Assembly (NCBI GenBank): GCA_973895155.1
Contig: OZ316895.1
Span: 20,350,803-20,414,802 of the forward strand
From: Marsupella aquatica
Lineage: Eukaryota > Plantae > Marchantiophyta
Length of the DNA: 64,000 nucleotides
Reading direction: 5' to 3'
Within the stretch, counting starts at the first letter, position 1. Every line of letters begins with the position of its first letter. Below are positions 1-17,500 of the stretch, in pieces. The notes below the pieces were generated by a model that was not told where the DNA came from, made no database searches, and saw only the letters and a list, made by a program, of their open reading frames with translations. The translations under genes were made by a program, and so were the position numbers.

Positions 1-184
1 TAATATTAAGTGTGGTTGGAATAGCAAGAACAAACTGCAATCGCTGATTCTATTTGGGAACTATGTACGCTTTTTACTTTAAGGGTGGCTTGATTTATTA
101 ATGAACTAGCATGCTGATTAGAATGCAAAGTGCGCTGTCACTGCACTTCAAGCTCATAACCGAAGATGCTGATGAGTTTTGTAG

Positions 185-750
185 CGTACGAACCGTCCAA
201 GAAGGAAGCAAAAGTTGGAACTCCTGAAAGACCTCTTTCTGATCTGGGACAGGTAAACACTTCCTTACAGAATCTACATTTCTTCATGGACAAGTGAGCC
301 ACTTTGTTGTAACGCTTTTATGCTACGGTTCGCGTTTCCAGGGTTTCAATTGCTTAAAATATAATTGAGCAATGCCGGGGCTGACATTTTGTATGTCACG
401 GGTAAGTTTTAGGAGCTACTGGACAACGGTTCTGTTAGGGATACTGCGAGATCATCGAGGGAACCTTTCGATCAAGGTTGGAAACGATGCTAAAGTTACT
501 GTGCTCTGTTTTAATTCAACTACATTCAGTGGCAGAAATGGTTCTCTTGGTCTGCTATTTACCAATCTTGCTTCCATCTGAGAGTACATTCCTATGACTG
601 GTTGAGGGACGCCATTTCAGCGGGCTTCTTAACACGTTGTTACTTGTGGGTCGTTTCATGCATGATTTTCTTGCAGGACCTGAGTTCCATGATTGCCATC
701 CGTACTGATGATATCATCAGCACTCTTCAGTCCCTCATTTGATCAAGTAA
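185..750 (+). pseudogene. MYST-family histone acetyltransferase (HAM1/2, ESA1-like), 3' gene fragment, pseudogenised
   Basis: Exons 185-252 (YEPSKKEAKVGTPERPLSDLGQ), 402-476 (VSFRSYWTTVLLGILRDHRGNLSIK) and 677-~750 (DLSSMIAIRTDDIISTLQSL) match the conserved MYST C-terminus, including GTPERPLSDLG. The acceptor before 402 reads CGG rather than CAG. A 1-nt deletion near 737 gives an early TAA, and I see no final exon. Confidence 0.85.
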
Positions 751-1194
751 GCTTGATTTGAGTGTTTTCCTCACGTTGCAAATAGATTCAGGCAGAGGCA
801 TTAGCTAGAAACAAAAAGTTTGGGAATGTGGACTGTGAGAGATTTCCGTTTTTTAAAGAGTTTTCCATATTTTTTAAACCCATCAGTCCATTGCGTACTT
901 GTCAAGACAGTTTGCCTCTAGGTGACTTCCACCCCTGGATTCATTTAGGGTAGCTTAATTTTCCAGGAAAGCTTGGAAGCCCCCTTGCTTAGCAGGTGGG
1001 CTACTTGAAGTCTTTTATTGAGCAATAATTGACGATCTGTTTCCTCCACAGTCAGAAAACATTACATAGGGGATTTTGTTACCAAGGGTTGACCCCGATC
1101 GGAATGTAAAAAAAAGCGAACCTACTGCCATCCTGGACCAAGAGTTAAGTAACCAGTGTTATCTTATACCCTTGGGCTGACCACCCTTTGGCGG

Positions 1195-1722
1195 GGCGGT
1201 CTTTGCGAGGCCCCAATTATATACACAGAGAATGATGGACTGAGAGAATCATCGTTCGTGAACCCCCATAGAAGCGCGAGGTCGAGAGAACACGGCAGTG
1301 GGCACAGAGAGAGAATTGATAGCAATTTAAACGTGAGGTTTGATTCCCGATAAGCAGCCAAAGATGGGTGCAGCAGGCACACAGGAAGAATGATGTTCGT
1401 CCCGTCTCTTCTAGGCGGCAAGAGAGCATGTAGTCTGTTCTCCAACAACAAATCTCTGGTCCTCTCACTCTTCTTCCGTCCCGTCCGCTTTATGATCCTC
1501 TCGCTTCGCTGCTTCTCTCGTCCTGTTTGCTTAAAAGTCTCCTCTCCTTCTTCACGTGTTCGTCTTCCTGCTTGTAGTACTGGCAGGGCGGTCTATGCAA
1601 GGCCCCAATTATATACAGAGAATGATCAACTGAGAGAGGCATCGTTCATGAGCCCCCATAGGAGCGCGAGGTCGAGAGAACACGGCACTGGACACAGAGA
1701 GAGACATGATAGCAATTTAAAT
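1195..1722. repeat. Diverged ~140-bp direct repeat pair (1195-1332 and 1587-1722)
   Basis: Both copies read ggcggtct..gc.aggccccaattatatac..agagaatgat...gcgcgaggtcgagagaacacggca.tgg.cacagagagag...gatagcaatttaaa. Confidence 0.9.
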
Positions 1723-3106
1723 GCTTGAGCGACTTCGGGATTTTATCAAAACTGCATGATTGTGAGGGACGTGCCCGGGCGGGTGGCAGGGAGGAGGAAG
1801 GGAGAAATTGAGGGTCACGTACTGGTGATGGGATGGAAATTGGGAGGAAAGAGTATGGCACGGAATTGACAGAAGTGGAGCCGTTTGGCCACGTGCAGGG
1901 TTTCAGCTATGTATGTAGCTGGTGGAGCGAGATACGCCAGTCAAGGACGGAAGGGTTTAGAGATAAATATCCTAAAAGAATGACAACAACCATCATACAA
2001 GGCATAATTTGTGTGTAAGATGAATCAATTGGCTAGAGAGAAATGTATTTACAAATTGATCTCATAGTATTACAAAATTTATCATATTTGTTATTATAAT
2101 ATTTTTAATAAATTTTTAAATAATATTATATTTATAACAAATAAATATTTTTTTAAATATTTTTTTTATAGGGATGAGTATTTTTTGAATGTATACTCAC
2201 ATAGTTTTAGTTTCTCTTCAATTTGAACCCAATTCTTACAATGTGTTTCACCATTTCTTTCATTAACTAGTTCTTCAAATATTCACAAAATATAGTTAGA
2301 AAATAAATTAAATTGTTGTGCAATCCTCATAAGCGTGAATTTGGTTCTGCCATTCACGAAAAAATAACGCACCTGTTGACACTGCAGTTCGATCTGAAAA
2401 AGAGAAAATCTCCTCTAGTAATCATAATGAAGGGTATTGTCCAAACCTGGCTTTCCCTCTCTTGCTCTTTAGCTATTTTTTTCTCTTGCGCTTCAGCTAT
2501 CGTCGCAGACGCTTCGCATTATGCCGCATGGTCCTTTGTTACCAACGTTGGTTTTTGTGAAGCTGGAAGATTCGCTACGTGTTTGTGATGGGAATGAGTT
2601 TGATATTTGCAATGTCGTGGGGTTGGCAACTAGCGAGCCTTATAAGATCACTCTTATGCAAAATAAATTTGATGGGGACTTCCGATCTAAATTGGATCGG
2701 AACTTGTGAGTTGGTTTAGGCCAGAAGTTGTGAACCGTTTGACTTCGCAACTTGTGATGTTACTTGGTTATATAATAGCGATCCGAGTCATTTCAGTATT
2801 TCCTAGTTATCCAAGTTCGCAATGGGTTTGCACTTTCATGGGAACACGACTTTCAATCAATGTTTTGCGAGGGATTTCTCTTGGCAGTGGACCCAATGTG
2901 GAAGGCAAATGTTTTTTATAAGATCCATGCAAGTATATAGGTGGATATACCAAAATGTTAGGGCTTGAATTAAGGAACCCAATACACAAGAGGGGTGGCA
3001 TATCTGATGCCAAATCACCCTACTCAACATATGCTATCCTAGCTAAGCTCCAACACGGCTAGTCAGTGACATGTATTTCATGAGCCCGGTCATGAGATTC
3101 TACAAG

Positions 3107-5077
3107 CTAACTAAAATGGACTCTTCCGACCCCGCTTTGTCGGCTTCTCTGCCAGCTTCTTGCCCTTATCCTTCTGTGGATGTACAGCCTGGTGCTGATG
3201 GGTGCACGGTGCCTTTCAGCGCTGCTGCTCCTCCTGCTCCTCCTCCTCCTCCTCCTGCCCATCCTCCTCCTCGTCACCTCCCTCCTGCTCCCCCTCATCA
3301 TCAACCTGTCTTGATGATGCACGACTACTACCACTACTGCGATGGGATGAACCTACCTCCCGGCTACTGCCCCTCTCCCTAGAACCACTGGTAAGAGGAG
3401 TAGCCCCCTCATCCTCATCATCACTACTACTTGCGCCAGCACCCAACCCCTCAGGCTCATCCGAATCCTGCATCCGTACACTTAATCAGTTTCTACAAAT
3501 TAAAAAGGGTCATCCACAATGTTGACATCACAATTAATTAAACCTTGAACACCTAGATACTTACAGTAGCCAACTCGGCATCCACCATCTGAAAGAGGTA
3601 CTTTCTCCCATGCTCCATCCCTATCTCAATATGTTTCTTGGATATCTTCCTCTTATATTTCCGGTACTGCCATGCACCATAAAACCAAAAATTAAACCCA
3701 TAGGCTAAACCAAAATTCACAATGCTAGAGGCCTTAGGCCTAGAAAAGTTAAACTACTTTGAAAACAACTCAAATTCACATTTGCGAAGCTGATGCGTTC
3801 ACAAAATGCGAAGACCTAATTTTTGCAAAGGCATTGTGATGGCTTTTGCGATGCGCGTACCTTCGCAACAGCATCAGAAAATCCAAAAAGAAAAAAGTGC
3901 ATAGTAGACTTTGCGAGGCTCTTGCGAACGGATACACATCGCAATGGGATCGCAAACTGTGATCCCGAGAGGTTTTTAAAAATGCACAAATTTCTAAGTG
4001 TCAGTCGTGACCTAAAACAGTGCACAAGCAAGCACATGAGAGCATGGACATCATGACATTCCATTCACTTGCATTACCTCAACTGAGAAAGTAAGGAGGA
4101 AAGAGCTTAGGGAGGAGAGGAGACACTCACAAAGTGGGCCTTGAGACCGGGGAGCCCGCCTTGACCCAGCTTGTGGACTGGATTGGGGGTGGCTTTCACT
4201 CGCTTGGCTGCATCCATGAAACGTTTGGGTGGTCTTCCTTCTGCTCGAGTCCCTTCAGGTCATGGTCAAGGGGGAGCTTCCCGGTCTCCTTTGCTTTCAG
4301 GGATCGAGCTAGTGTATCCTTCCACTGTTCCAACTCGCGAGCTGCTTTGATTTGCACCTCAATCTTGTAAAATGCATCCCAGATGTCCTTAGTGAATTGG
4401 AGGGGCCTACGCAAATTCCTGTACGATCTCAAGTCTCTCAGGTGGGCTCTAATCTTCATCCTATCATGGTATCTCATTTGAGACATGGAATTAGAAATCT
4501 TGTCTGCCAGCCATTGCTCATCTATGTCAGCTCCATTATGAAATGCATCCTTGATCTGATTCATCACTCTCTTTCGCTCTGCCTTCTCAACCTTTCCCCA
4601 TTGCATGCCTTGTGAGAAATTGCTTGTGATGATCTGTTTGATGGTGCTCTTAGCCCCTGCATAGGCTAGCTCAGTTGGAGTCCCAGTTGTCTCCAAGGCA
4701 ATGAATGGAAGCTTTTTCCTTGCATCCTCTTTCTGACGTTGCTCATCTCGTTGTTTTCAAATTGCATCCCTCTCCTCTCTTCTCTTCTGTTTTTCTATGG
4801 CTTGAGGAGAGGCAACTCCCAACTTAGCCCTCTCCTCCCTCTTCCTTCTTTTCTCTCTAGCCTTCTCCTCAGCTGCGACCCTCTCTTCCTCGTCTCTAGT
4901 AGCTTGCCCTGCCACAATTCCTGTTTGCAAAACCTGGCCTAAAATGGCACTCAAGGAGGCAAGCCCTGCTGGAGTATTCAAATTTACTTCACCCAACTGT
5001 GCAGCACTGAGATCGAGAGAGAAGCGAGAGGAGAAGGGGCCCTGCTGGAGAAAATGTATCTCTAATTTGTGAAGCAA
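3107..5077 (-). pseudogene. TnpA/Ptta (Transposase_24)-like second CACTA protein with acidic C-terminus, disrupted
   Basis: ORFs 4757-5077 and 4196-4696 are in the same frame, separated by one TGA. The motif W.KV....RKRVMNQIKDAF...W...RP..FTKDIWDAF resembles En/Spm TnpA-like proteins. There is a GT donor near 4130, a further probable exon at ~3564-3670, and an E/D/S-rich exon at ~3216-3475. Confidence 0.6.
3720..4000. mobile_element. Putative 281-bp non-autonomous mini-CACTA in an intron of the TnpA-like gene
   Basis: Begins CAATGCTAGA and ends TTTCTAAGTG (imperfect TIR). It is flanked by TCA (3717-3719) and TCA (4001-4003), consistent with a 3-bp TSD. The interior is rich in the same ttgcga/tcgcaa motifs as the ends of element A. 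Confidence 0.5.
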
Positions 5078-5199
5078 TTTGCGAGGCAGGTGATCTCGGT
5101 TTAGGGTGGGAAACTATCCCAGGTGTTTAAACGGCTTTACAAGGGTATGGCCTATTTAAACCCTTTTAACTCAACATGGATTTGTGAATGGCCAATTAG

Positions 5200-6200
5200 T
5201 TTGAAGAAGAGGATTTTAGGTTATAGTTGGGTTCTAATTTAACAAAGGGTTTGAGTTTTAATTTGGGGTTTGGATTTAGAAAGGGTTTAGTTTAGGGAGG
5301 GTTGTGTTTCAATTGAAGGGGTTAATTTGGGTTTAGGTTTTAATGTAAGGGTTTGGTTTGACTTTTCACTGATTTCATATTTTTTGCTCTATACATATTT
5401 CAGTTTAGGGACATGGTTTTAATAGAGGACTTTAAGTTAGGGTCTAAGGTAGGGGTTTGGGTAAGGTTGTAATTGAGAAGTTTGGGTTAGGGTTTAGGGT
5501 AGGGGCTTGATTTTGGTTTAAGTTTAGGGGTTTGGGTTAGGGTTTAGGGTAGGGGCTTGATTTTGGTTTAAGTTTAGGGGTTTGGGTTAGGGTTTAGGGT
5601 AGGGTCTTGATTTTGGTTTAAGTTTAGGGGTTTGGGTTAGGTTTAGGGTAGGGGATTGATTTTGGTTTAAGTTTAGGGGTTTGGGTTAGGTTTAGGGTAG
5701 GGGCTTGATTTTGGTTTAAGTTTAGGGGTCTGGGTTAGGTTTTAAATATAGGGGTTGGGTTCCATTTTAATTCTAAGTTGTGTTTCATTTTTAATTGAGG
5801 GGTTTGGGTTAGGATTTTTGGGTAAGGGTTTGATAGGTAATGAGGGAATATGAATAGGTAACTTAGGATGGAGTTTGAGTTAGGGTTTAAGGTAGGGGTT
5901 TGAGTAAGGTTTTAGCTGAGGGGTTTGGGTTAGGTATTGAATATAGGGGATCGATGGGTTCAATTATAATTCAGGCTTGTGTTTAATTTTTAATTTAGGG
6001 ATTTGGGTTAGGGTTTAGGGTAAAGGCTTCATAGGTAATGAGGGAGTTTGGGTTATGGTTTCAGATGGGGTTTGAGTTAGGTTTTAGCTGAGGGATTTGG
6101 GTTAGGGTTTGAATGTAGCAGTTGGGTTTTTAGCGTAGGGGTTTTGGTTAGCTAGGGCTTTGGGTAAGGGTTTTATATGTTCATGTTTAGGGTAGGTTTT
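5200..6200 (+). repeat. Degenerate telomere-like (TTTAGGG/TTAGGG) array, including ~5 copies of a 50-bp unit at 5481-5740
   Basis: The unit tttgggttagggtttagggtaggggcttgattttggtttaagtttagggg repeats at 5481, 5531, 5581, 5631 and ~5680. The flanks are G/T-skewed variants of it. Confidence 0.92.
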
Positions 6201-6638
6201 TTTTTTCTAATTGAGGGTATGCTTTCTTTATTTCATTAACATGAAGGGGTGGAACACTCTAGGAGTTGCAGGGCACTTCCCCATCGTTTTGAAAGTTTTG
6301 GCTAATGCATATGCATTGCGAGAGCTCGGGCATCTGAAAGGTAAAGCTTGTTTTCCTGGCATTTTTTATTTTTACTGTAACTTGAGGGTCTATCATCCCT
6401 TTCTATAGTTTACCATAAGTCATTGCTTAATTCATTGTATATTTGCAGATTTATCCCTCCTACTTCCAGATTGGGTTCATCAAGTTTGGACCAAAAGACC
6501 TATAGGCATTGCTGAGCCCGGGTCTCATAAAGGTATTTTTTCCTTTCATTTCAGTTTAATATGTCTACATAGGAATTACAAATGATCGTTTTAGCTATTT
6601 GATTACTAACTCACTATTCCAAATCTTCCACTTGCCAG

Positions 6639-7791
6639 ATGTCTTCATCCTCTACAACTTCCACCACATCAGACTCCTCCTCTGATGAGGACATAGATCC
6701 TCCTCATCAGCCTGAAACAGCCGCTCGTCAACCTAGTGGTCCACCACGCCAACTTTGCAGTTGTAAAAAATGTGTGGGGATGGTTGTCCAGAAGTCATAT
6801 GTATATGCAGACCATATTTCTCGATATGGACAACATCGAGGTCTTACACCCGGAGCCTCTTCATCCCATACGGTGAGTTGTAAACTTACTATGGTTTATT
6901 TTTTATTCAATAAATATTGCTAGCATGATAAGTTGGGGAAGTTTACAATCACTTTGTTGGATTTGTTCCCTATAGGTATCTAATAGGCCTACACCCACGG
7001 CACCAGCACCCTATGTTCCCTCACAAGGAGTTCTAGATGCTATAGGCTCGGCCCTTTCACAAGCTTTCCGTTTAGTTGGAGCAGAGCGAAGTGGTGTTGG
7101 GACAGTTCAGGGTGATGGTATTGTTACACGAGGGAAAAAACGGTCTAAAAAGCAACCTAGAGGGGAAGTTGATCAGTACACCTGTAGGGTTGATGGTAGG
7201 TGGGGACCTTGTACATTCACAGGGAAATGTGTTCCTATCATAAAGGATTGGAATCCTGATTGCCTTGGTTTGCCATGTGATATAACCTATGGTGAGGAAA
7301 TAGAGGTTTGGGGAAGACATTGGATTGTCAAAAGTTCTACACTAGGGGAGAGACATGGGTATGGAATTTTTTCTTGCCAGGACATCATTGTGGATGATAT
7401 GGGTGGAAAAGGGCGCTCTCAAGATGGACCAACGTTGTTCCCATATGGTGGACCCATTTACAAGCGGAGACATTGGAACATGTTCCTTGTACAACACCCT
7501 GAGTGGAAGACTTATGCATTGGACATGGATACTTTTGATGGTTGCACTAGGAAGTATAGTGAACAACGTATAATTGATGGTGATCCCATCCGTAGTGGAA
7601 ATATAGCCGGTTTCATTAACAGTACTGTGGGGACCCGGCCTAAGCGTAGGAAAAACTATGAATGGGTTTTTGTTGATGGTCCCCCTCCAACACCATATGG
7701 GCAGAGATATCATCATGACCATTGTCTAGTTGTAGCTACTAGGACCATCAAGGTCAGAGAGGAGTTGTTTACACATTATGAGTGGGATTAG
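6639..7791 (+). CDS. Transposon-encoded SET-domain protein (349 aa): transposase-associated Cys/His domain plus SET; exons 6639-6872 and 6976-7791
   Basis: Exon 1 (78 codons; CSCKKC...DHISRYG) ends at a phase-0 GTGAGT donor. After the TATAG acceptor at 6971-6975 the frame is open to TAG at 7789-7791. SET hallmarks are present: VKSSTLGERHGYGIF, LFPYGG, IIDGDPIRSGNIAGFINS and VVATRTIKVREELFTHY. Confidence 0.85.
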
Positions 7792-7987
7792 GCTTATTTT
7801 AGGGACATGTGTTATTTATATGTTCCTTCATGCTTTGTGAACATATATTTTGTAAGTTAGGGTTTACACCCTAAACCTATGATGTTCTTTCACATTGTAT
7901 GTTAATAATATGTGTCGATATTGTTTTTGTCTTATGAGGGATTTAATTTGGAGTTTGATTGTGAATGCTTTATTGTATTGTCCATAG

Positions 7988-10900
7988 AATGTGCGACCTA
8001 GTCAAGATATGTTGCCAAGGAGGTTGAGAGCTACATATGAAGAAATGGGCATGCCACAAGACGGAGTCACATCATCAACAGATTCTTCATCCAATGACAG
8101 TGACAATGAGGGTTTGGATGAAGGGGCACCTAGGACAGATTTTGAGGTCATGCAGGACCAGGAGACAGCCATGGATGACTTCATGACAGATTGGTTTGGT
8201 GTGGACGTTGATGGTGAAGGACGTGGACCACCCAATGAAGGAGCTCCTCCACCAAATGCTGCACATGACCCCCGACCTCAACATACACCAGAAGGTCAAC
8301 AACAATGGGAAGAAGCGGAGGCACATGCTAGAACACTTATTTATGGGGGTGCTCGTTTGAATAGACTCTCTGCCATCTTGGCATTGATGAATCTTCAGGC
8401 AAAACACAAGGCAAGCAATGCCCTTCTATCGGATTTGTTTGCAATTTGCCATGACCTCATATTACCTAGTAACAATGTATTGCCAGGAACTTGGAAGGAG
8501 GCAAAGAGAGTTCTATCATCCATTGGTATGGAATATCATATCATTCATGCTTGTGTGAATGACTGCATCCTATATCATGAGACCAATGCCAACATAACTG
8601 AGTATCCAATTTGTCATGAGCCTCGATATGACAACAACATGTTGACGGAAAAGGTGCCCAGGAAAGCTGTCCGTTGGTTTCCCATTATTCCTCAATTGTT
8701 GCATATGTATCGATGTTCTGACTTGGCAGAATTGATTGTATGGCATAAGACACATCGATCAGAGGCTGGTGTCATGCGGTTGTCAGTTGACTCCCTTGCT
8801 CACAAGCATGTGGAGGCACAATGGCCAGAGTTTGCACATGACCCTCGTCATGTGAGGTTGGGGTTGGCATCGGATGGGGTCAGCCCACACTCCCTTGGTG
8901 GGAAAGGACGCCCAACTTTAGTTTGGCCGGTGGTTGTTATGAATTACAATCTTCCACCATGGTTGTCCATGAAAAAGGGCTTCTTATTGCTATCATTGAT
9001 TATCCCAGGTCCATCTAAGGTAAAAAACATGGACACCTATTTGGCACTATTGGTTGGGAAACTCCAAAAATTATGGGACGGTGTGTGGGCCTATGATGGT
9101 CAAAAAACTATAGGGGGATTACCACGTGTCTTCAAATTGAAGGGAATCAATATGTGGACCATGCATGACTATCCTGGTAAAGGGTATGGATTGGTGTTTT
9201 TTTATGTATTAGAGAGTTTGTTTTAAAAGAAGTCCCTCATATTTATGTATGTACATGAACTTTTTAAATCCTTTGACTCTAATTGAGAAAGTTGTTTTGG
9301 TTTGGGTTTGTTGCAGGGTTTGGGTTTGTTTCAGGGTTACAAACTCAAGGGTATAAGGCATGCTCCACTTGTGGTCCAAGCCTTGAAGATATGGCCAAGT
9401 ACTCAAGATGGCTTTGCAAGATAATCTACCTTGGGCATACCAAGTTTCTTCCACTTGGACATGAGATGAGGTCTGACCCCCTTCTATTTTCAGACTTTGA
9501 CATGATCAATGGTGATGAGCGTGACATACCTGAGCGTACATCCTTTGCACATTGGAAATCCATAGCTGATAGGGTGGCAGACCCTAACGACCCCATGACA
9601 TTTGATGGAAGTGGGTTGACAAGGTGGAGTATACTAGCCACATTGCCGTATTGGCCAGAGTTGAAGATTCATCATTTGTTAGACCCCATGCATATAGAGG
9701 GAAACGTTGGGAAGGGTTGATCAAGCATTTTTATGGAGAAAATGACCATAATTTTAGGGAGGCATGCCAGGATCTAGAACGACATCCAAATGTATGGATA
9801 ACAGTTGATGCATCAACAGGGATGGAACACCGTCCTTCAGCTCCTTGGGTTTTGAGTGTTGGTGAAAGAAGAGAGTTTCAACAACGCATAGGTCAGATGC
9901 GGTTTCCTACAGGCTATGGTGCCAATCTCCGGAAAGCTTTTGGGATGGAGGACAGTCATAAGTGGCCAATGTATTTGAAGACACATGACTATCACCGTTT
10001 ACTACAACATATACTTCCTATGGCAATCATAGGCTTGGGCAGTGAAGAAGTGCAAGACACCCTATGGTCATTGGGCACTTTGTTGAGATGAATATGCTCA
10101 AAGGAAATATATGAAGAAGAGATCCCACGGATGGAGGTATTGGCAACAGAGGTAGTGTGCAAGTTAGAGAAGGCCCTCCCTCCTTCCTTCTTTGATTGTC
10201 AAGTACATTTACTTGTTCATCTTGTGAGGGAGGTTGCCATTGCTGGTCCAGTGCATTGTCGTTGGATGTATTGGTTGCAAAGGTATATGGCTGTGTTAAA
10301 GGCTTATATACGGAATCGTGCATGAGTGGAGGGGAGCATGGCAACAGGATACTTGGCAGCTGAGAATATGTTCTATTGCAGCAACATCTTAGCTACCATT
10401 GATCCTAGTTGTCCACGCAGTTGGATGGAAGAGAGAGAAATGGAGGAGGATCGTTTAACAGGAGCCAAAAAACACGCTTATTGACCGGAGTGGAGTTGAC
10501 ACAGATGACTACTTTCATGTTGAGTAATAGTACTGTGATGGAAGAATGGAGAGAGTTTATGAGGATGCAAAGAGGGAGAGTCGTCGCCCAAGGATTTTTC
10601 CAAAGTTCCTTGAGTATATGAGGGAGAAAGTACTTCAGTTGGATGCTATGGTGGCCCAAGATGAGAGTGTATCACATTTTCCAGATATGACTCCTGATCA
10701 AGGTTCGAACAATTGTTCATGGCCCTTTGAGACTTGTTCAGACCAGAACAACAATGTGGACACAAGGAAGACATTTCAGGATTTCTGACCTTGATGAGAA
10801 GAGGGGTAGAACTTTTGACTATGGAGTTCAAGGGCAGTTCATGCAGGATTCACAAAGTAGCTGCCATGACACCAATGTCATCCGAGATGTGGTGCCTCAC

Positions 10901-11268
10901 TATGGGAAGATAGAGGAGATCTTGATTGTATCCTATGATGCGGATACAAAATTTGAAGAGTATGTCTTCAAGTGTAAGTGGTTCAAAATTCACTTGGTTG
11001 GTGAGAATCGCACAGTACTTCTTGATGATTGTGGGTTTACTCGACTGAAGACATCATTCAGCAACTAGCTTTCAACCATCTCATTGGCAAACATCTGAAC
11101 CGTTTACATTCCCAAGTCACCTTGAGCAGTGTTTCTATATTTCGTACCCACCAGACCCAGAGGAGTGATCAGTTATACCGTATGTGCCACGATCTCGTTC
11201 CATTATCTCAGAAAAACCTGAAGTTATTATTGTGTCAAACGGAGGAGAGGATGAGGACCAAGTTTGAT
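7988..11268 (+). pseudogene. CACTA TnpD transposase (Transposase_21 plus DUF4218/DUF4216-type regions), disrupted
   Basis: Motifs include IHACVNDCILY, RHVRLGLASDG, WPVVVMNYNLPPWLSMKK, DYPG|FGFVSG..TQGYKAC (intron 9177-9316), LDPMHIEGNV, LKTHDYH, VHLLVHL..GPVHCRWMY and YGKIEEIL..VFKCKWF. Lesions: frameshift near 9715, stops at 10089 and 10323, and further frameshifts/stops at ~10430-10480, ~10700 and 11066. Confidence 0.93.
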
Positions 11269-11964
11269 GCATCACTAGTAGTAAAACTTGTTGTGAGCGT
11301 ATAATTGTGATTATATTAACTATCATGGTTTTGTTTATATTTACCTATTTATTTTCTTCTTTTGTCTTACAAACACTTGGACTTTGAAATTTCATTTTAC
11401 TGCTATACATGCAACCCTAGCCACTAGAAAAGTTATCCTCATGCATGCCACTTTTTTGAAATCCCTAGCTTATAACCTAAACACATGCATTCTCCATCTT
11501 CTAAAGTATTCTCTCAAAAATTTCCATTCTGAAAACTTTGCAAACAACTCTCTTTGCGAAATATTATTTGAACCAGACAGGAAGGAATTTTTGAACCTCT
11601 TGTGAATCCAATTCCATTGGTACTTGTGATACAAATACGTTCTCAAACTTGCGACCAAATTGGCTTCGGTACTTTGCGATCCACCGTTCTTCACAACACT
11701 TTCCGAACATAATAGGTTCACAAACCATTTGTGATAGTATTAGTCTCGCTAAATTATGAACCAAAATGTATCCGAATACGGTCGCGATGGTCGCGGACTC
11801 ACAAAATCGTTGCGAGACAACTAGTATCTAAACGTGTTGCAAAGTCAATAACATCAAAAATTAATTGCGATGTCTGTAGCTTTGCAACTTGAATGTGCGA
11901 TGGTAAGAGCATGGGATATTGTGATGCGTGTTGCATCACAAAATATCTGAAGGTTCTAACATTG

Positions 11965-12984
11965 CAAGGCCTTCCCGACGTCAAAAAACAAGTCCTAAAG
12001 AGTTGGAAAGTGCTCAACAATACCTTGACATTATATGCTCCTTTTGGGTGAAACCCTTATGAAGTAGACCCACGCATGCACGTTGGCTTGGATCTCCATG
12101 TTGGGGATGTTCAAATTTTGGATTCTTTTGTTGAGCCAAGAGCTTACACCCTTGCGGTCGCGGATATTCCCTATGGTTTTAATGCTCTTGGTTTGGAGTT
12201 TGATGAAATGTCCTTCACAGAAAAGGATGTTTTAGATATGGTGACAAGTTTTTCAAAGATGACGACCGCTAAGCAGTGGAGGTTTGTTGTGATCCATTCA
12301 CTACAACAAACTAATATGATGATGTCTGCACTTGAGAGTGTATGCAACTGTGGGGTCGAGGCTGGAATCTGGGAGAAGACTAACATTCATGAGCGTCCCG
12401 CTGGCGCTCGATTGGCATGGGGTTTTGAGAACTGGTTGATGAGTTTCTATAGCGAGGAAGGCATTCGGAACATGAACATGTACAATTTCCAACCGGATGA
12501 GTCTCCCATCAATATCATCAAGGTTCCATGTGTAACCAAGAAGTCCATTGATCTGTTGGGATGTGTTGTGAACCCGTATCAGAAGCCTGTTGGTTTGGAG
12601 GCTTGGTTTATTTCCCATTTCTCTGAGAAAGAGGATTGGGTTATAGATCTTTGCTGTGTAACCGGATTGATGTTAGCTGCTACGCTCCTCAATTCTTGTC
12701 AGGGTTGTGCTGTCGATAAGAGTTCTGCGCAGATTGATTTTGTGAAATCTCGGATCATGACTCTGGAGTCAAACTGGAATTTATTTGAGGAATCCTAGAT
12801 TGAAGGGCACGGCGTTGAAGGTCATGAGATTCAACCACCAATTGCAGGCCAGTTGGGTGTTCTTGGGACATCAACTTACACAATTGAAGTCATGAAGGAG
12901 ACCAAAGAGGAACAAGAAGCAACTAAGGAAGAGCCTCCCATAACATCAAATGAGGATGATCTCAATGACATGTTATTAGATTAG
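11965..12984 (+). pseudogene. Beta-class N6-adenine/N4-cytosine DNA methyltransferase (N6_N4_Mtase-like), degenerate
   Basis: Motif order is LHVGDVQIL, ADIPYG (motif IV, DPPY-like, at 12163), GIWEK, NPYQKPVGL, FSEKEDWVIDLCCVTG (motif X/I, degenerate DPFxGSG), then AVDKS. The core ORF is 12076-12798. The same frame continues coding-like from 11965 (TGA at 12049) and past TAG 12796 into an acidic tail ending at 12984. Confidence 0.8.
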
Positions 12985-13248
12985 TTCCCAACGACTCACC
13001 ATCGTAGCCCATAAAAGACTGAAAATGACTCACCAAAGCTACCCACACAAAGACTAAAATAGATTGAAAATCCAGTCTATTAAACGACTTATAAACCAGT
13101 TCTATAAAGGACTCAGTTGATTATAGTAACAAAACATACGAATCGCAGTCCTATAAAGGACTGGAGTCCTTCCTAGTCGTTTCCAAGTCCTATACAGTAC
13201 TGAATAGTCATTTAATGGGGTCTAAATACCCCCCGGTTTCTACTAGTG
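11965..13248 (+). mobile_element. Right portion of a second CACTA element (element B) containing the DNA MTase ORF
   Basis: The terminus GGTTTCTACTAGTG (13235-13248) is the reverse complement of CACTAGTAGAAACC, a canonical CACTA TIR. It is preceded by subterminal repeats (cagt..tataaaggact, agtc/gact) at ~13070-13200. Confidence 0.75.
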
Positions 13249-13310
13249 TGTGCTAGTTAGAATTTCTTGGCATCACAGTCATATTGTTATCAATGAGGAA
13301 TGGAGTTGTC

Positions 13311-13461
13311 GATAAATTTATCGGATTCTGTATTCCATCAAGAAGAACCGTTGTAACCTTTGTTCATGCAATAAATTTATCGGACTTTGCATTCCATCAA
13401 GAAGCACCTTAACCTTTGTTCATGCGATAAATTTATCGGACTTTGCATTCCATCAAGAAGC
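13311..13461. repeat. Three tandem ~57-bp units, each with the palindrome GATAAATTTATC or a 1-nt variant
   Basis: (g/a)ataaatttatcgga.t.tg.attccatcaagaag repeats at ~13311, ~13370 and ~13426. Confidence 0.85.
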
Positions 13462-14592
13462 ACTTTGCATTCCACGCTCTAGTTATTCCACTTCCTCCGC
13501 TCTAGCTATTCCACTCCCTTGTTTGTCACGGTGTTCTAGTTGTCGAATGGAGTTGTCGGGCTCAAGGACGACCGTCTGGGCCTCCGGATGGACTTTGACT
13601 TCTGAGGGCTTGAGTGTGAGCTCCTCTTGGGCCCAAGACCAATGGAGTTGACGTCATGGGCAATGGACGCTTGGGGCGCAAGTTATGGCCCAATCCGGGT
13701 TGGGCCGATCGTGGGCCTCAAGCGGCGATGAGACCTGAGGGCCTAGGCATGAGCACTGGGTCGGCCCAATCACAACGAGCTAAGGCACTCCTCTTGCAAA
13801 TGCCTAACGAGAAAGTTATGGGCGTTGCTAGTTGGTGGCGCGTCCATTATGCGCGATAGGATCGAGGTTGGGGGCCAAATGTTTAGGGACCTGTGATGCC
13901 TAGCCAGGAATCACTAGGCCAGTTTAAATGGAAAAAGGAGTGTACCCTGGAAACACATTAGTATAGTAACAAAAACAAGGAAAATATAAACAATTAAGGG
14001 TGACTATGGAACCCAAGCCGAGGCTGGAAGTAAGGACGTCGGTGGAGGGAACATGATTAGGGTTAGGGCGCGCTAAGTGCCAGCGGCTATGGGTAACCAA
14101 TGGGAAGGAAGACCAGGCAGGAGGGGGGTAAGGACCGATCGCAAGGAATGGTGGCTCATTTTGCAAGCACGAACTAAGCAGACGACTACGTGAAGCCAAC
14201 TACTGTCACCTGCTTAGGCAAACAGTACTCTGGGCAAGAGCAAATATCAACTATCAACTCAAGAAGGGTATGAGCAATGTCAATCAAGCTGCTCATTTTT
14301 GGGGATGCCTGTTCGAACGGGAAACTGAGTACATTGGGACCTACAAGGACAAAGAATTGGAAAGAGCAGCTCAAGAATGGCAGGAGCTCGCTTGACTGTG
14401 GGAGCTGCAGAAGTTTGCCTTCTTAGGAGGAGAACTCATCAAGGTTGAATTCCTATGGACACCTACTAGTGACAAGCTAGACGAACTTCTGTTTTGCAAG
14501 AACAGAATCGTCGGCATTCGGGAAGCCATCAACCGCTGCAACGACATACACTGGGAGTTGAAGGGTAGCACGGAGGGGTGGACGAAGGCAAC

Positions 14593-17500
14593 CATGCTTG
14601 GAGAAACATCCACGGCAGCCGCTATGAAGAGGAAAGGGGCCAACAATGAAGAGGCCACCCCTGCAAAGAGAACGAGGTCGGTGGCACCAAGGAAGCTAGC
14701 CGAGCAGGGAAGCAGGAGGCAGGAAGAAGCCAAAGAAGAGGAGGTCAACCCCATCAATGTCGTTCCAACCAGAGATGACACCTGGAAAGGCTGGGCGGCG
14801 ACCCTCCCCGAGGAAGTGCAATTACACTTTGCACGTGAAGAGGATGCATGCTTTACGGCTATGCAGACTCAAAAGTACCCAGGGCTTCATGGCCGGATCC
14901 GGCTTGGAAGCCTTCGTGAAATTACCATGGCTGAAGCCAAAAATGCCGGATTCAGACTTATTAGAATTTGCGGGATCATGGGAGCCTGAGACCAATTCCA
15001 CAAGGGTGTATGGGAAGGATTTATATCTCACTCCCTGGGTGATTGCTGAAGCGTTTGGCTTGCCAATAGGCAATAAGACCAAAGTAGATACCAGAAGCCT
15101 GACAAGGAGTTCCGGTCGTTCCCAGGGCCATCAACAAAGAATGGCTTCTTTTGGAACACCTGCACCAACCCGCACATTGGAGAGATGATCAATTTCTTGA
15201 GGGTAACCATGCATTGTAACTTGCCGAGGCCAGAGATTGGCAAGGCCTAGGTCTACCTGGCAGAGAGGCCAGACCCAAGCCGGGATTACAACGGGTACCT
15301 CCTCACCCAACTGAAGAAGATCTTGAAGGAGGAATAGCAAGTGATCGGCACGGGAAGTGTGTCCCGGCTTGGCTATCACATGACGCTATTGTGCCAGTAT
15401 GCCCAGAGTCAAATCTTTGCCCCGGTACTTCCCTTGCAAGCAAGAGCATTAGAGGAGGTTCCGAAATAGAGGCCGGCAGCAGAGAAACCCAACCAGCCCG
15501 ACAGTCCTACAATCGAGCAGGTGTTTAGGCCAAGGACAAAAGACTTGCCAATGCAGCAACCAGGCATGCAAAATCTGCTGAAATTGCTGGAGAAGGAGAA
15601 GAGGATGGCAACGGCAATGGCACCGGTACAGAACAGTGCCCCAAAAGTCGACTTAAGCCAACTCATAAGGGAAAACCCCTTTATCAGAGCCAAGGAAAGA
15701 AGGAGGCCGGAACACGAGCCGGGGGTTTGAATGTATGTAGGAGCCTCAAATCCCAAAGCCGAGGGAGAGTAGCCTAAAGCTCCTCTTTGCGGTAAACAAA
15801 GGGAGAAGACAGCCTGGAAGCCGGAGGAGGAACTAGGACCTGTGAGTTATGATCGACAAGAGGCCGTGTTCACAGCAAGACAAGGAGTGCAGCAGGGGGA
15901 ATCGGTAGTCCAAGCCGGGGAGGAGGTGGTGGAGGACTATGGCAATAATGACTCCGGCTACAGGTCGGACCATCATGTCCCAAGAGTAAGGACCTGTGGC
16001 CATTTCATCCCCACGCTTCCAAGAGTAGTTCGAGGTTACCCCACCCAGCAAAGCAGTCCGGAGTCTCCCCCACCAGATGTCACTCCCCCGAGCTTTGACG
16101 GGATAAAACAGACGGCACAAGAGTTTCAGGATCGACTCAGGGAAGTAGAGGAGGCAGCCCTGGCTAGGGAGAAGGGCCAGAGGACATCCAACAGCTTGCA
16201 AAAAGACGGGGCAACCCTCCAGCCACGATAGAAGAAATAAGGAAGGCAGCTTGGGAATAAAGGCCGTGGTGGTTGATGCCGATGACTACTACTCACTCCA
16301 CCTATGCTAAAGAAAGAGCCATGGAGTACGGGGAGATGTGTGGGGAACTTGCGCTCAGCATATTTGGGGAGGAGTTGGAGCAGGGACCTTTTTCCAGAGA
16401 GAGATGTTGGAAAAACGCCGATTGGAAGAAGCGGTGGCTTTGGAGAGAAGAAAGAAGGACGAGGTCATCCAACGGCTTAGAATGAAGGAAGCCAAGGCAG
16501 AGGACCACAAGGCAGCCAAGAAAGCCCAAGATGAGCTGCGGATTAAGCGGCATGAGCTAAACATCATGCAAGGGCAATTGGATACCGCTCAGTTTGATAA
16601 TCAGATTATCAAAGATAAACTGACTCCTCGGGGGTCTCACTATATGGGGACCTCCCCATCGCCTGCGACGTTTTTAGGCCTCGGACCCCCTAAAATGTAA
16701 GAAAAAAATATTATTTTTTAACCCCTATAAAGTTGGAATATTCTTGGAATATTCTAAAAATTAGATTAAAAAGACCCTAATGTTCTTATAAGTCTCAAAA
16801 TTGAATTTAAAAGTCCCTATTGTTCTTCTACAAAAATTCTTAAGTCTTCCCTTAGAACCAATAAAATGACCCTATCCTTCGTCGCACGTGATATGCCATT
16901 TTTGTGGAAGTGAAACCCCCGAGACTGACTCGGACCCATGGGGAGTTGGCCAATGCGGTCAAGGAAAGGGAGAAGTGGAAGCGAGAGCTAAGGGACGCAG
17001 AGGAGGCCCACATAGCAACCAACAATCAGGCCATGGCGGAGACCCAGAGGAGGGAGAGGGCATAGAAGGGGGAGCTCAAGGATATCCATGGAGCCCTTGA
17101 GCAGAAGGAGGCTGAGTTAGGGAAATTCTATCAAGGGATTATTGTGCTGCAGCAGGAGCTTGCATCCCTGACGGCCAGCTTCAAGGCCAACCTGCGTGAG
17201 AAAGACGACCAACTCAATCAGACTTATGCCAAGATGAACAAGATGGAGTCTGAGGTCGTGACGGAGCTCGACAAGGAGCTGAGAGCAACCCAGGATGAGA
17301 GGACTACCTTAAAGAAGGGATTGGAGGAAGCTCAGAAGGAATTGGAGGAAGCCCAGAGGGAGTTAGAGGAGGCGCGAAAGGACCTGGACAAAACGCAAGA
17401 GGAGTTAGAAGAAAGCACAAGGAAGATGGAGAACTTACAACCAAACGGAGCGGCTGAAGAAACAAGCCGCAGTTCTTAAGTGCTTGGCTTCATCAGTTCC

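Follow-up and report, generated by a model that had tools for sequence, protein, structure and literature searches.

The window analysed here, a 64,000-nt stretch of Marsupella aquatica DNA (assembly GCA_973895155.1, contig OZ316895.1, positions 20,350,803 to 20,414,802), holds what its sequence marks as a decayed member of an old CACTA (EnSpm) transposon family of bryophytes, in which an exon encoding a SET domain lies nested between the first exon and the transposase exons. The layout and the splice-site coordinates of the nested exon were confirmed, and one transcription unit likely gives rise to two proteins via two alternative 3′ splice sites, one ending in the SET domain and the other being the transposase TnpD. 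The full proposition, that both splice routes (to 6976 and to 7988) are used and that the SET protein has been kept by selection, is in our judgment moderately probable.

Gene layout and splice sites

The features of the element are listed below by position in the window.

2745 to 2870, no strand: left TTGCGA/TCGCAA motif cluster, likely subterminal; motif clusters also lie near the ends of the related loci L029, L004, and L009
3216 to 5113, minus strand: divergent multi-exon accessory gene, decayed (tblastn and tblastx, 6 loci, 47-62% identity)
5414 to 6200, no strand: GGGTTAGGGTTTAGGG-like G/T-rich 25/50-nt tandem array, flanked by the divergent genes
6449 to 6532, plus strand: likely a non-coding exon of the 5′ UTR, bordered by AG and GT and sharing a CCTATAGGCA core across three families (DNA alignment)
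6639 to 6872, plus strand: exon 1, 78 codons, with a Ser/acidic leader, C40-x-C42-xx-C45..H59, and a phase-0 donor
6873 to 6975, plus strand: short intron of 103 nt and 30% GC, ending at the proximal acceptor
6976 to 7791, plus strand: SET exon, 271 codons and stop, comprising a linker, an N-terminal extension that starts at about 7180, and the SET core at 7357-7788, with the sequence motifs GYG at 7357, YGG at 7444, GNIAGFINS at 7597, and EELFTHY at 7759
7792 to 7987, plus strand: AT/T-rich spacer, 196 nt, free of donor-like sites, likely 3′ UTR of the SET form
7988 to 9176, plus strand: TnpD exon 2 (Tnp2 transposase), with ASDG at 8867 and MHDYP at 9161 (PF02992, E 1.2e-34)
9177 to 9316, plus strand: TnpD GT-AG intron; related loci show a gap at this position
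9317 to 11267, plus strand: rest of TnpD, with CSTC at 9361, HHLLDPMHIE at 9670, and DUF4218
11554 to 11870, no strand: right TTGCGA/TCGCAA motif cluster (motif search)
12052 to 12984, plus strand: separate gene of the amino-DNA-methyltransferase (PF01555) type, with DIPY at about 12163, QKPV at 12580, and DLCC at 12646
13221 to 13248, minus strand: right terminal inverted repeat (TIR), ending in TAGTG (reverse complement starting with CACTA)

The coordinates and phase-0 donor of exon 1 given in the original prediction were re-derived and hold: a CAG acceptor precedes the ATG at 6639, and 234 nt later the exon ends at the donor ACG/GTGAGT. The two downstream acceptors that it had placed in frame with exon 1 are so, the proximal one at 6976 reading CCTATAG/G and the distal one at 7988 reading CCATAG/AAT, after which the frame stays open for 412 codons; splicing to 6976 yields the complete 349-aa protein with a SET domain that had been proposed (78 + 271 codons, TAG at 7789-7791). 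Introns and spacer have a GC content of 30-31%, compared with 45-48% in the exons. The Sphagnum-type acceptor aligns with an AG at 6985-86, but that AG was rejected as the window acceptor for being out of frame in the window. Three things favoured the site at 6976: it is the final AG of the intron downstream of a T-rich tract, related copies lack indels behind it (in those from public runs, three fall in the intron and the adjoining exon sequence within 6820-7060 has none), and a Calypogeia gene model has the identical VSSRP junction. The UTR exon is presumably transcribed, and the spacer likely serves both as the 3′ UTR/poly(A) region of the SET form and as the pyrimidine tract of the distal acceptor.

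The cysteines and histidine of exon 1 form a putative zinc module. PF13963 is, by domain order, the usual N-terminal domain of TnpD, and a domain of this transposase-associated kind had been proposed for exon 1; the CxCxxC..H pattern is present, but the PF13963 match falls below gathering (E 0.021, 15.4 bits, cut-off 27.7) and appears at E ≤ 5 in exon 1 of 2 of 13 family members, so the assignment stays weak. A complex prediction for two copies of the module with zinc, run without an alignment, scored 0.02, a value taken neither for nor against such a module.

The SET domain

The window copy by itself matches PF00856 below gathering (E 5.5e-4, 20.8 bits, cut-off 22.4), and the SET domain of the original prediction was secured by its relatives and by a predicted fold. 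Gathering was exceeded in 6 of 10 relatives, and 27 of 45 distant relatives matched at E ≤ 0.01 (best 35.6 bits). An AlphaFold model (pLDDT 92.3, pTM 0.87; an earlier model from 30 close sequences had a pLDDT of 41 and was not used) gave a Foldseek match at E 8e-7 and, by VIA against EZH2, SET8, and SET7/9, Z scores of 11-12.2 with rmsd 2.1-3.1 over 117-136 aligned residues, which supports a SET fold for the product of 6976 to 7791. A PDB match by sequence needed a 75-sequence profile, for which LegAS4 ranked first; phmmer and a 30-sequence profile gave none.

SET domains are defined by GxG, YxG, and ELxxxY motifs and by a canonical RFINHS. The first three are conserved in the family (G206 in 65/69 and G208 in 68/70 sequences; Tyr or Phe at 235 in 73/73 and G237 in 71/73; E341 in 60/62 and Y346 in 55/60), as is the Asn at position 293 (63/72). 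RFINHS is absent; the family reads G-[YF]-I-N-S, with Ser for His in 69 and Gly for Arg in 64 of 72 sequences, and has no post-SET region. At residue 339 the window copy carries Arg, and 57 of 63 sequences have Gly.

These features bear on two readings. The SET domain of intact copies would, with fair probability, be an active SAM-dependent lysine methyltransferase. A possible but clearly less probable alternative is that it is catalytically dead, acting as a reader, a decoy, or a transposase regulator (a binder or scaffold), or that it methylates a non-histone protein of the element. The two substitutions and the missing post-SET region would suit a dead domain, and either variant would be consistent with structural matches that are tied across H3K4, H3K9, H3K27, H3K36, and H4K20 enzymes and so carry no substrate signal. 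Against loss of activity, however, a set of 60-73 diverse sequences keeps the SAM-binding glycines, the Asn, and the C-terminal Tyr, and LegAS4, an active enzyme, likewise lacks the canonical His in the alignment, where it reads RYINFS.

Proposed splice routes, conservation, and selection

A metagenome scan with the SET alignment returned 37 loci, while a scan with a single protein returned none; since the loci were recruited through SET, SET-less relatives could not turn up. The position of the SET exon between exon 1 and TnpD, as originally described for the window, proved family-wide, with TnpD directly after SET in 25/25 and exon 1 before it in 14/15 informative loci. The exon 1 donor GT is kept in 14/14 loci, acceptor 1 is in frame in 20/23, and the AG of acceptor 2 is present in 22/25, with one more displaced by a 3-nt deletion. 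Because a single family accounts for most of these loci, they amount to three independent cases (the window, the main or Sphagnum-type family, and locus L002), and across these three the donor and acceptors are kept despite unalignable spacers (196 nt, 136-147 nt, and 219 nt, respectively), acceptor 2 being phase 0 in all of them.

It is very probable that exon 1 would be joined to 6976, with the RNA ending in the AT-rich spacer, to give the 349-aa protein of zinc module and SET domain. In the window's SET exon the first Met comes at residue 142, within the domain, so the window's family requires an upstream exon; in the main family the SET exon could be translated by itself from a Met at codon 4. 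The second route, from exon 1 to 7988 across a 1,115-nt intron holding the SET exon, would probably give TnpD with the zinc module at its N-terminus. Contigs from four runs contained neither joint, an outcome that has no bearing on RNA splicing.

An unlikely alternative to this second route is that two genes stand in tandem, exon 1 and SET forming one and TnpD starting from its own ATG at 8009, with acceptor 7988 fed by a non-coding exon or by a promoter in the SET exon. Among the 13 matches (of 20 candidates) for exon 1, none was an exon 1-to-TnpD protein, which fits separate genes, as do the upstream UTR exons with donors, a first TnpD Met that lies 8 codons into the exon (and is codon 2 in L002), and the alternation between alternative splicing and split genes in Arabidopsis EnSpm families. 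The seven codons before that Met, however, are conserved as protein (NVRPSQD vs NIRPSED) and their changes include silent ones such as Ser AGT/TCT, the phase of acceptor 2 is the same in three families, distant families have no Met at that place, and exon 1 resembles PF13963, if by a weak match. One transcription unit with two acceptors is the favoured arrangement.

Still less probable, and indeed improbable, is a SETMAR-like fusion, in which exon 1, SET, and TnpD would form one protein through a donor near the end of SET or through stop read-through. Gene models such as P0087, P0114, P0116, and P0028 do fuse SET to TnpD, with some ten such fusions in other families, and in one model exon 1 and TnpD are combined with part of SET; a donor-like AAG/GTCAGA in phase 0 stands 12 codons ahead of the stop in the window, and a single contig from run X1 has a joint 7748>7985 of undefined nature. 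Yet the stop after EW[DNS] is kept across the family and the frame of the spacer varies with its length (136-219 nt); only the window has the phase-0 site, whereas the sites of the remaining families are all in phase 1/2, and no in-frame donor inside SET is common to the families; and the models place the joint at different points, most of which would delete the conserved ELxxxY tyrosine.

Selection was assessed between and within families. Between the window and the loci, dN/dS was 0.18 for the SET core (37), 0.18 for exon 1 (14), and 0.14 for TnpD (20), values that come from non-independent pairs with pS near saturation at about 0.59; they support purifying selection on SET between families. 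The dN/dS comparison proposed with the original prediction thus came out at about 0.18 between families but near neutrality among main-family copies (SET 0.81, TnpD 0.55), where stops occur in 13 of 20 SET copies; these within-family values fit the decay of dead copies and do not indicate recent selection.

The SET exon is not private to one copy, recurring at many loci and in several species. Relatives were found in Sphagnum, Calypogeia, and Riccia, that is, in mosses and liverworts, and gene models of exon 1 plus SET (343-351 aa) are present in five Sphagnum species and in Calypogeia fissa. The relatives form 111 clusters at 50% identity, one with 360 members, and those of Riccia and Calypogeia have the same CxCxxC..H N-terminus and an adjoining TnpD. 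A tree of 64 of the 75 rows (11 short rows were dropped) placed the window closest to a Calypogeia protein, a placement that does not by itself demonstrate transfer. That the SET exon is a piece of a host gene, captured passively and carried along in a single lineage, is highly improbable, as the near-neutral change and frequent stops of main-family copies, which would suit it, stand against the between-family dN/dS, the diversity and shared architecture of the clusters, and the lack of a prominent close host SET source in the profile search.

Transposase, further genes, and element ends

The PF02992 match, DUF4218 (E 7.7e-25), and the located motifs class the transposase by sequence as Tnp2-type DDE, with ASDG, HDYP, and MHIE as what we take to be the catalytic triad. 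Besides CSTC, it has HHLLDPMH with a spacing of H(5)H, compared with the H(3-4)H stated for CACTA/EnSpm. The proposal that splicing to 7988 leads into TnpD agrees with the PF02992 match, but the transposase of the window copy is broken downstream of 9176, with stops at 10089, 10323, and 11166 and several frameshifts. The original prediction was silent on this breakage, on the divergent accessory gene, and on the amino-DNA-methyltransferase gene. For the accessory gene, a Pfam search matched nothing meaningful; its position and one motif make it a possible TnpA-like gene.

The methyltransferase gene has 33 homologues at 53-75% identity, 22 of them annotated PF01555, and all 4 that were scanned passed the PF01555 gathering threshold; the window's own ORF, broken by a premature stop at 12796, had no Pfam match. 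DIPY precedes DLCC, placing the catalytic motif before the SAM-binding motif, as in the permuted type of N6/N4 amino-DNA methyltransferase, for which this motif order has been described (PMC8885841), and by its sequence the gene is classed with that type. It was found in 0 of the 37 metagenome loci, including the full-length L029, and probably forms part of the element in the window's lineage, where it sits before the right end. The SET and PF01555 domains belong to two different genes, which TnpD separates and which lie about 4.3 kb from each other.

Repeat depth in four public runs rises from about 2400-2700, and a fuzzy TIR search found no left TIR in the window copy. A left CACTA boundary is common to L029, L004, and L009, whose flanks differ, and the right TIR of the window matches their left TIR at 13/23 positions ungapped. 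L029, a single case, is a 9,893-bp element with ACA on either side, a candidate 3-bp target site duplication, and a degenerate right TIR (8/10). From these sequences the TIRs are read as CACTA...TAGTG, with the right end at 13248 in the window and the left end taken from relatives. CACTAG at 11273 was considered as the left terminus of a nested element and rejected: the GGGGG-TATTT part is missing there, and in related loci the matching sequence belongs to the 3′ UTR.

Comparison with known systems and significance

In SETMAR/Metnase, which is domesticated and present in a single copy, a host SET gene is fused to a mariner transposase. The original prediction had drawn on it as a precedent, and it does share the presence of SET and transposase sequences within one gene, but the window element exists in many copies, and its SET protein ends at a conserved stop without fusion to the catalytic core, which makes SETMAR a poor analogue. 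The novelty once attached to the SET cargo was overstated. SET genes are present in HarbingerS and MuDR families of Phytophthora and in Helitrons (cited in PMC12730594 and the Bostrychia preprint), DNA transposons that likewise have a SET methyltransferase-like protein of their own, although these belong to other superfamilies and hosts, and their SET sequences are described as accessory genes and not as an exon nested in the transposase gene. In red-algal Plavaka elements, also of the EnSpm superfamily, the accessory PAG2 combines SET (PF00856) with an N6/N4 methylase (PF01555), its function being untested (10.1101/2025.02.11.637652). Both elements have the two domains, but PAG2 is one stand-alone gene with both, whereas the window has SET inside the transposase gene with a shared first exon, a separate methylase gene, no accessory protein that combines the two, a plant-type Tnp2 transposase (PF02992), and bryophyte hosts; the likeness described here is at the level of domain content.

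Maize En/Spm and Arabidopsis EN/SPM3 produce TnpA and TnpD via alternative splicing, and Arabidopsis TnpA has anti-silencing activity (PMC13547354; 10.64898/2026.08.24.746577). The window element resembles these elements in probably deriving transposase and putative regulator from one transcription unit, and differs in that the alternative product is an enzyme-fold SET protein with a shared coding first exon and that the extra accessory gene is divergent, on the opposite strand. VANDAL/VANC is the model of an element-encoded, self-targeted chromatin regulator; VANC leads to hypomethylation and does not have a methyltransferase fold, and self-targeting in the window element is putative. No description of a bryophyte CACTA-SET element or of shared-first-exon nesting in a land-plant CACTA was found in the openly accessible literature searched; on that basis the nesting would be new, and SET cargo as such is known.

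The shared N-terminal module might perhaps co-locate SET with the transposase, so that histones or element proteins would be methylated and the element would stay active. More speculative still is a self-directed chromatin-writing kit, in which splice choice would set the ratio of transposase to a SET enzyme sharing its zinc module, a protective lysine mark would be placed on element nucleosomes, some lineages would add 6mA/4mC DNA marking, and the unit would have persisted through much of the history of bryophytes, perhaps with transfer between mosses and liverworts. If true, the shared first exon would link how much writer is made to how much transposase is made. Chromatin writers encoded by transposons are on record for oomycetes, fungi, and red algae, with none found in print for a land-plant CACTA, and functional tests of such writers are not reported in the literature examined; since this old and selected family abounds in bryophytes, a group that includes genetically tractable models, whether an element sets histone marks on itself can be put to the test. 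The annotations of Sphagnum, Riccia, and Calypogeia contain hundreds of “SET domain-containing protein” models that are likely transposon exons and not host histone methyltransferases.

Arrangement of exon 1, SET and TnpD

The arrangement of a first exon, a SET exon and a TnpD exon is real, under selection and family-wide. Direct checking of the sequence bore out the coordinates originally predicted for exon 1 (6639-6872), its donor and both acceptors. Exon 1 comprises 78 codons from the ATG at 6639 and ends at the donor ACG/GTGAGT; the near acceptor (6976) yields a 349-aa product through the SET exon (6976-7791), and the far acceptor (7988), beyond a spacer (7792-7987), leads into a Tnp2 transposase, TnpD (PF02992, E 1.2e-34). 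GC content is 45-48% in the exons and 30% in the intron and spacer. Among the three domains first assigned to this copy, the transposase was recovered by Pfam, with SET (20.8 bits) and PF13963 in exon 1 (15.4 bits) both scoring below the Pfam cut-off. The reading frames of exon 1 and SET are intact in the window copy and TnpD is disrupted, making this copy non-autonomous.

Whether the SET exon always lies between exon 1 and TnpD had been proposed as a check. In 37 metagenome loci, among which SET-less relatives could not appear because the loci were collected through SET, TnpD lay 3' of SET in all 25 whose contigs reached far enough downstream, and exon 1 lay 5' of it in 14 of the 15 informative loci; the remaining loci end at contig edges or are truncated. 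The donor GT was kept in 14/14 loci, acceptor 1 (near) was in frame in 20/23 and the AG of acceptor 2 (far) was kept in 22/25, most loci being copies of one family, 91-94% identical across the coding region, and the independent units being three families (the window's own, the main Sphagnum-type family and that of locus L002). CATAG/AAT at acceptor 2 is common to all three, whose spacers cannot be aligned and measure 196, about 146 and 219 nt. The adjacency of SET and TnpD is old, since a CxCxxC..H head precedes SET in distant proteins too and several distant gene models continue from SET into TnpD. Locus L029 holds a whole Sphagnum-type element (6249-16141 of that locus; 9,893 bp). Set against the CACTA criteria of PMC4158355, its left end is of CACTA type, its right end is degenerate, and a 3-bp target duplication flanks it. 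TTGCGA and TCGCAA motifs, candidate binding sites, are concentrated at both ends of this element and in the stretches that separate the genes.

Identity of the SET domain

That the exon encodes a SET domain was confirmed by its relatives and its predicted fold. Forty close relatives were found at 46-77% identity, of which those with a named source come from Sphagnum species and Calypogeia fissa, and a profile search returned 111 clusters at 50% identity, with Riccia sorocarpa the source of six among the cluster representatives looked up; 27 of 45 distant relatives scanned matched PF00856. A structure model from 30 close sequences was unusable (pLDDT 41), and a second, built on 75 diverse ones, scored pLDDT 92.3 and pTM 0.87; for this model the Foldseek matches listed against the PDB were SET proteins only (best E 8e-7). 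VIA-align scores were tied (Z 11-12.2) across EZH2, Set1, ASH1L, SET8, SET7/9 and LegAS4, and thus the fold gives no substrate signal. The family keeps GxG, YxG, the Asn and the C-terminal Tyr; it departs in having Ser for the NHS His, Gly for the preceding Arg and no post-SET region, and at a separate family Gly the window copy has Arg. SET is likely to be enzymatically active in intact copies.

Selection

Ratios were calculated by simple Nei-Gojobori, with values near saturation and non-independent pairs. Median dN/dS between the window and the 37 loci was 0.18 for the SET core (pN 0.18, pS 0.59); exon 1 gave 0.18 (14 loci) and TnpD 0.14 (20 loci), and L002 against the main family gave 0.34-0.44. 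Neutral evolution of SET, raised beforehand as the alternative, is not borne out between families, but within the main family SET (0.81, 190 pairs) and TnpD (0.55, 130 pairs), together with stops in 13 of 20 SET copies, match the expectation for dead copies and bear no sign of recent selection. In related copies from public runs, indels occur in the short intron but are absent from the exon stretches beside it, and the third codon position accounts for five of eight exonic substitutions. The window and L029 coding regions, of the window family and the Sphagnum-type family, share 72-75% DNA identity, with silent sites still short of saturation (pS about 0.59); should the host be a liverwort, this may reflect horizontal transfer. 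The nearest SET to the window's in the tree is a Calypogeia protein, a liverwort sequence, which makes a bryophyte host likely.

Splice usage and proposed mechanism

The splice from exon 1 to SET is very probably used: the first Met within the window's SET exon comes only at residue 142, and predicted exon 1-SET annotation models occur in five Sphagnum species and Calypogeia. Use of the exon 1-TnpD splice is probable, with somewhat less assurance. Seven codons ahead of the first Met of TnpD are kept as protein between families, with silent changes among them; distant families lack that Met; and there is no donor in the spacer and no in-frame donor within SET common to families. Against this splice, no exon 1-TnpD gene model occurred among 13 exon-1 matches, upstream UTR exons supply alternative donors, and the L002 TnpD exon has a Met at codon 2. 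A contig joint at 7748>7985 (public run X1) falls close to a donor-like site that is private to the window and lies at the end of SET.

Most likely, a single promoter upstream of about 6300 would produce one pre-mRNA. Joining the exon-1 donor to the near acceptor would make SET the last exon, with the RNA ending in the AT-rich spacer, and joining it to the far acceptor would skip a 1,115-nt intron and make transposase, both proteins starting with the same putative zinc module. By analogy with TnpA and VANC, this module could conceivably target SET to the element or transposase and the mark written by SET oppose silencing, a tentative reading.

Rest of the element

Features of the element outside the three exons

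5113 to about 3216, - strand: divergent gene, conserved in 6 loci, no Pfam family
6449-6532, + strand: apparently non-coding 5' exon, its CCTATAGGCA core kept in three families with unalignable introns
12052-12984, + strand: PF01555-type amino-DNA-methyltransferase gene with DIPY motif and premature stop, between TnpD and the right TIR
13248: right TIR, end of element

An HxLGxGG stretch in the divergent gene makes it a candidate TnpA/Transposase_24 relative, and the CCTATAGGCA core is a possible cis-element. A telomere-like G/T-rich array of 25/50-nt units (5414-6200) lies between the divergent genes and is skipped or variable in related-copy contigs. The methyltransferase gene, typed after the accessible part of PMC8885841, has 33 homologues (22 with PF01555), all metagenome, Logan or other protein entries. 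Because it is absent from 37/37 loci, full-length L029 included, its linkage to the element rests on the window copy. A contig joint at 12986>13249 (public run X2) bypasses the element's last 262 nt and casts some doubt on that linkage.

Relation to known systems

In the accessible parts of the sources, Phytophthora elements of the HarbingerS and MuDR families are described as carrying SET cargo (PMC12730594), as are Helitrons. The closest described case is red-algal Plavaka (EnSpm/CACTA superfamily), whose PAG2 combines an N6-methylase with a SET domain (10.1101/2025.02.11.637652), a pair mirrored here by the SET exon and the PF01555-type gene. The original prediction considered the arrangement undescribed; this stands for bryophyte CACTA-SET elements, of which the literature search, with Repbase and preprint supplements outside it, found no description, but not for SET cargo as such. 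Its premise that En/Spm elements make several proteins by alternative splicing is established, as far as the available text goes, in PMC13547354 and 10.64898/2026.08.24.746577.

Flanking sequence

Another repeat starts directly at the TIR and extends from 13249 to about 20000. It includes tandem units of 56 nt (13310-13463) and disrupted coiled-coil ORFs, and is probably an LTR retrotransposon, as a candidate. At about 190-255 (+), a short exon reading VGTPERPLSDLG is a candidate for what is presumably a MYST-family histone acetyltransferase host gene.
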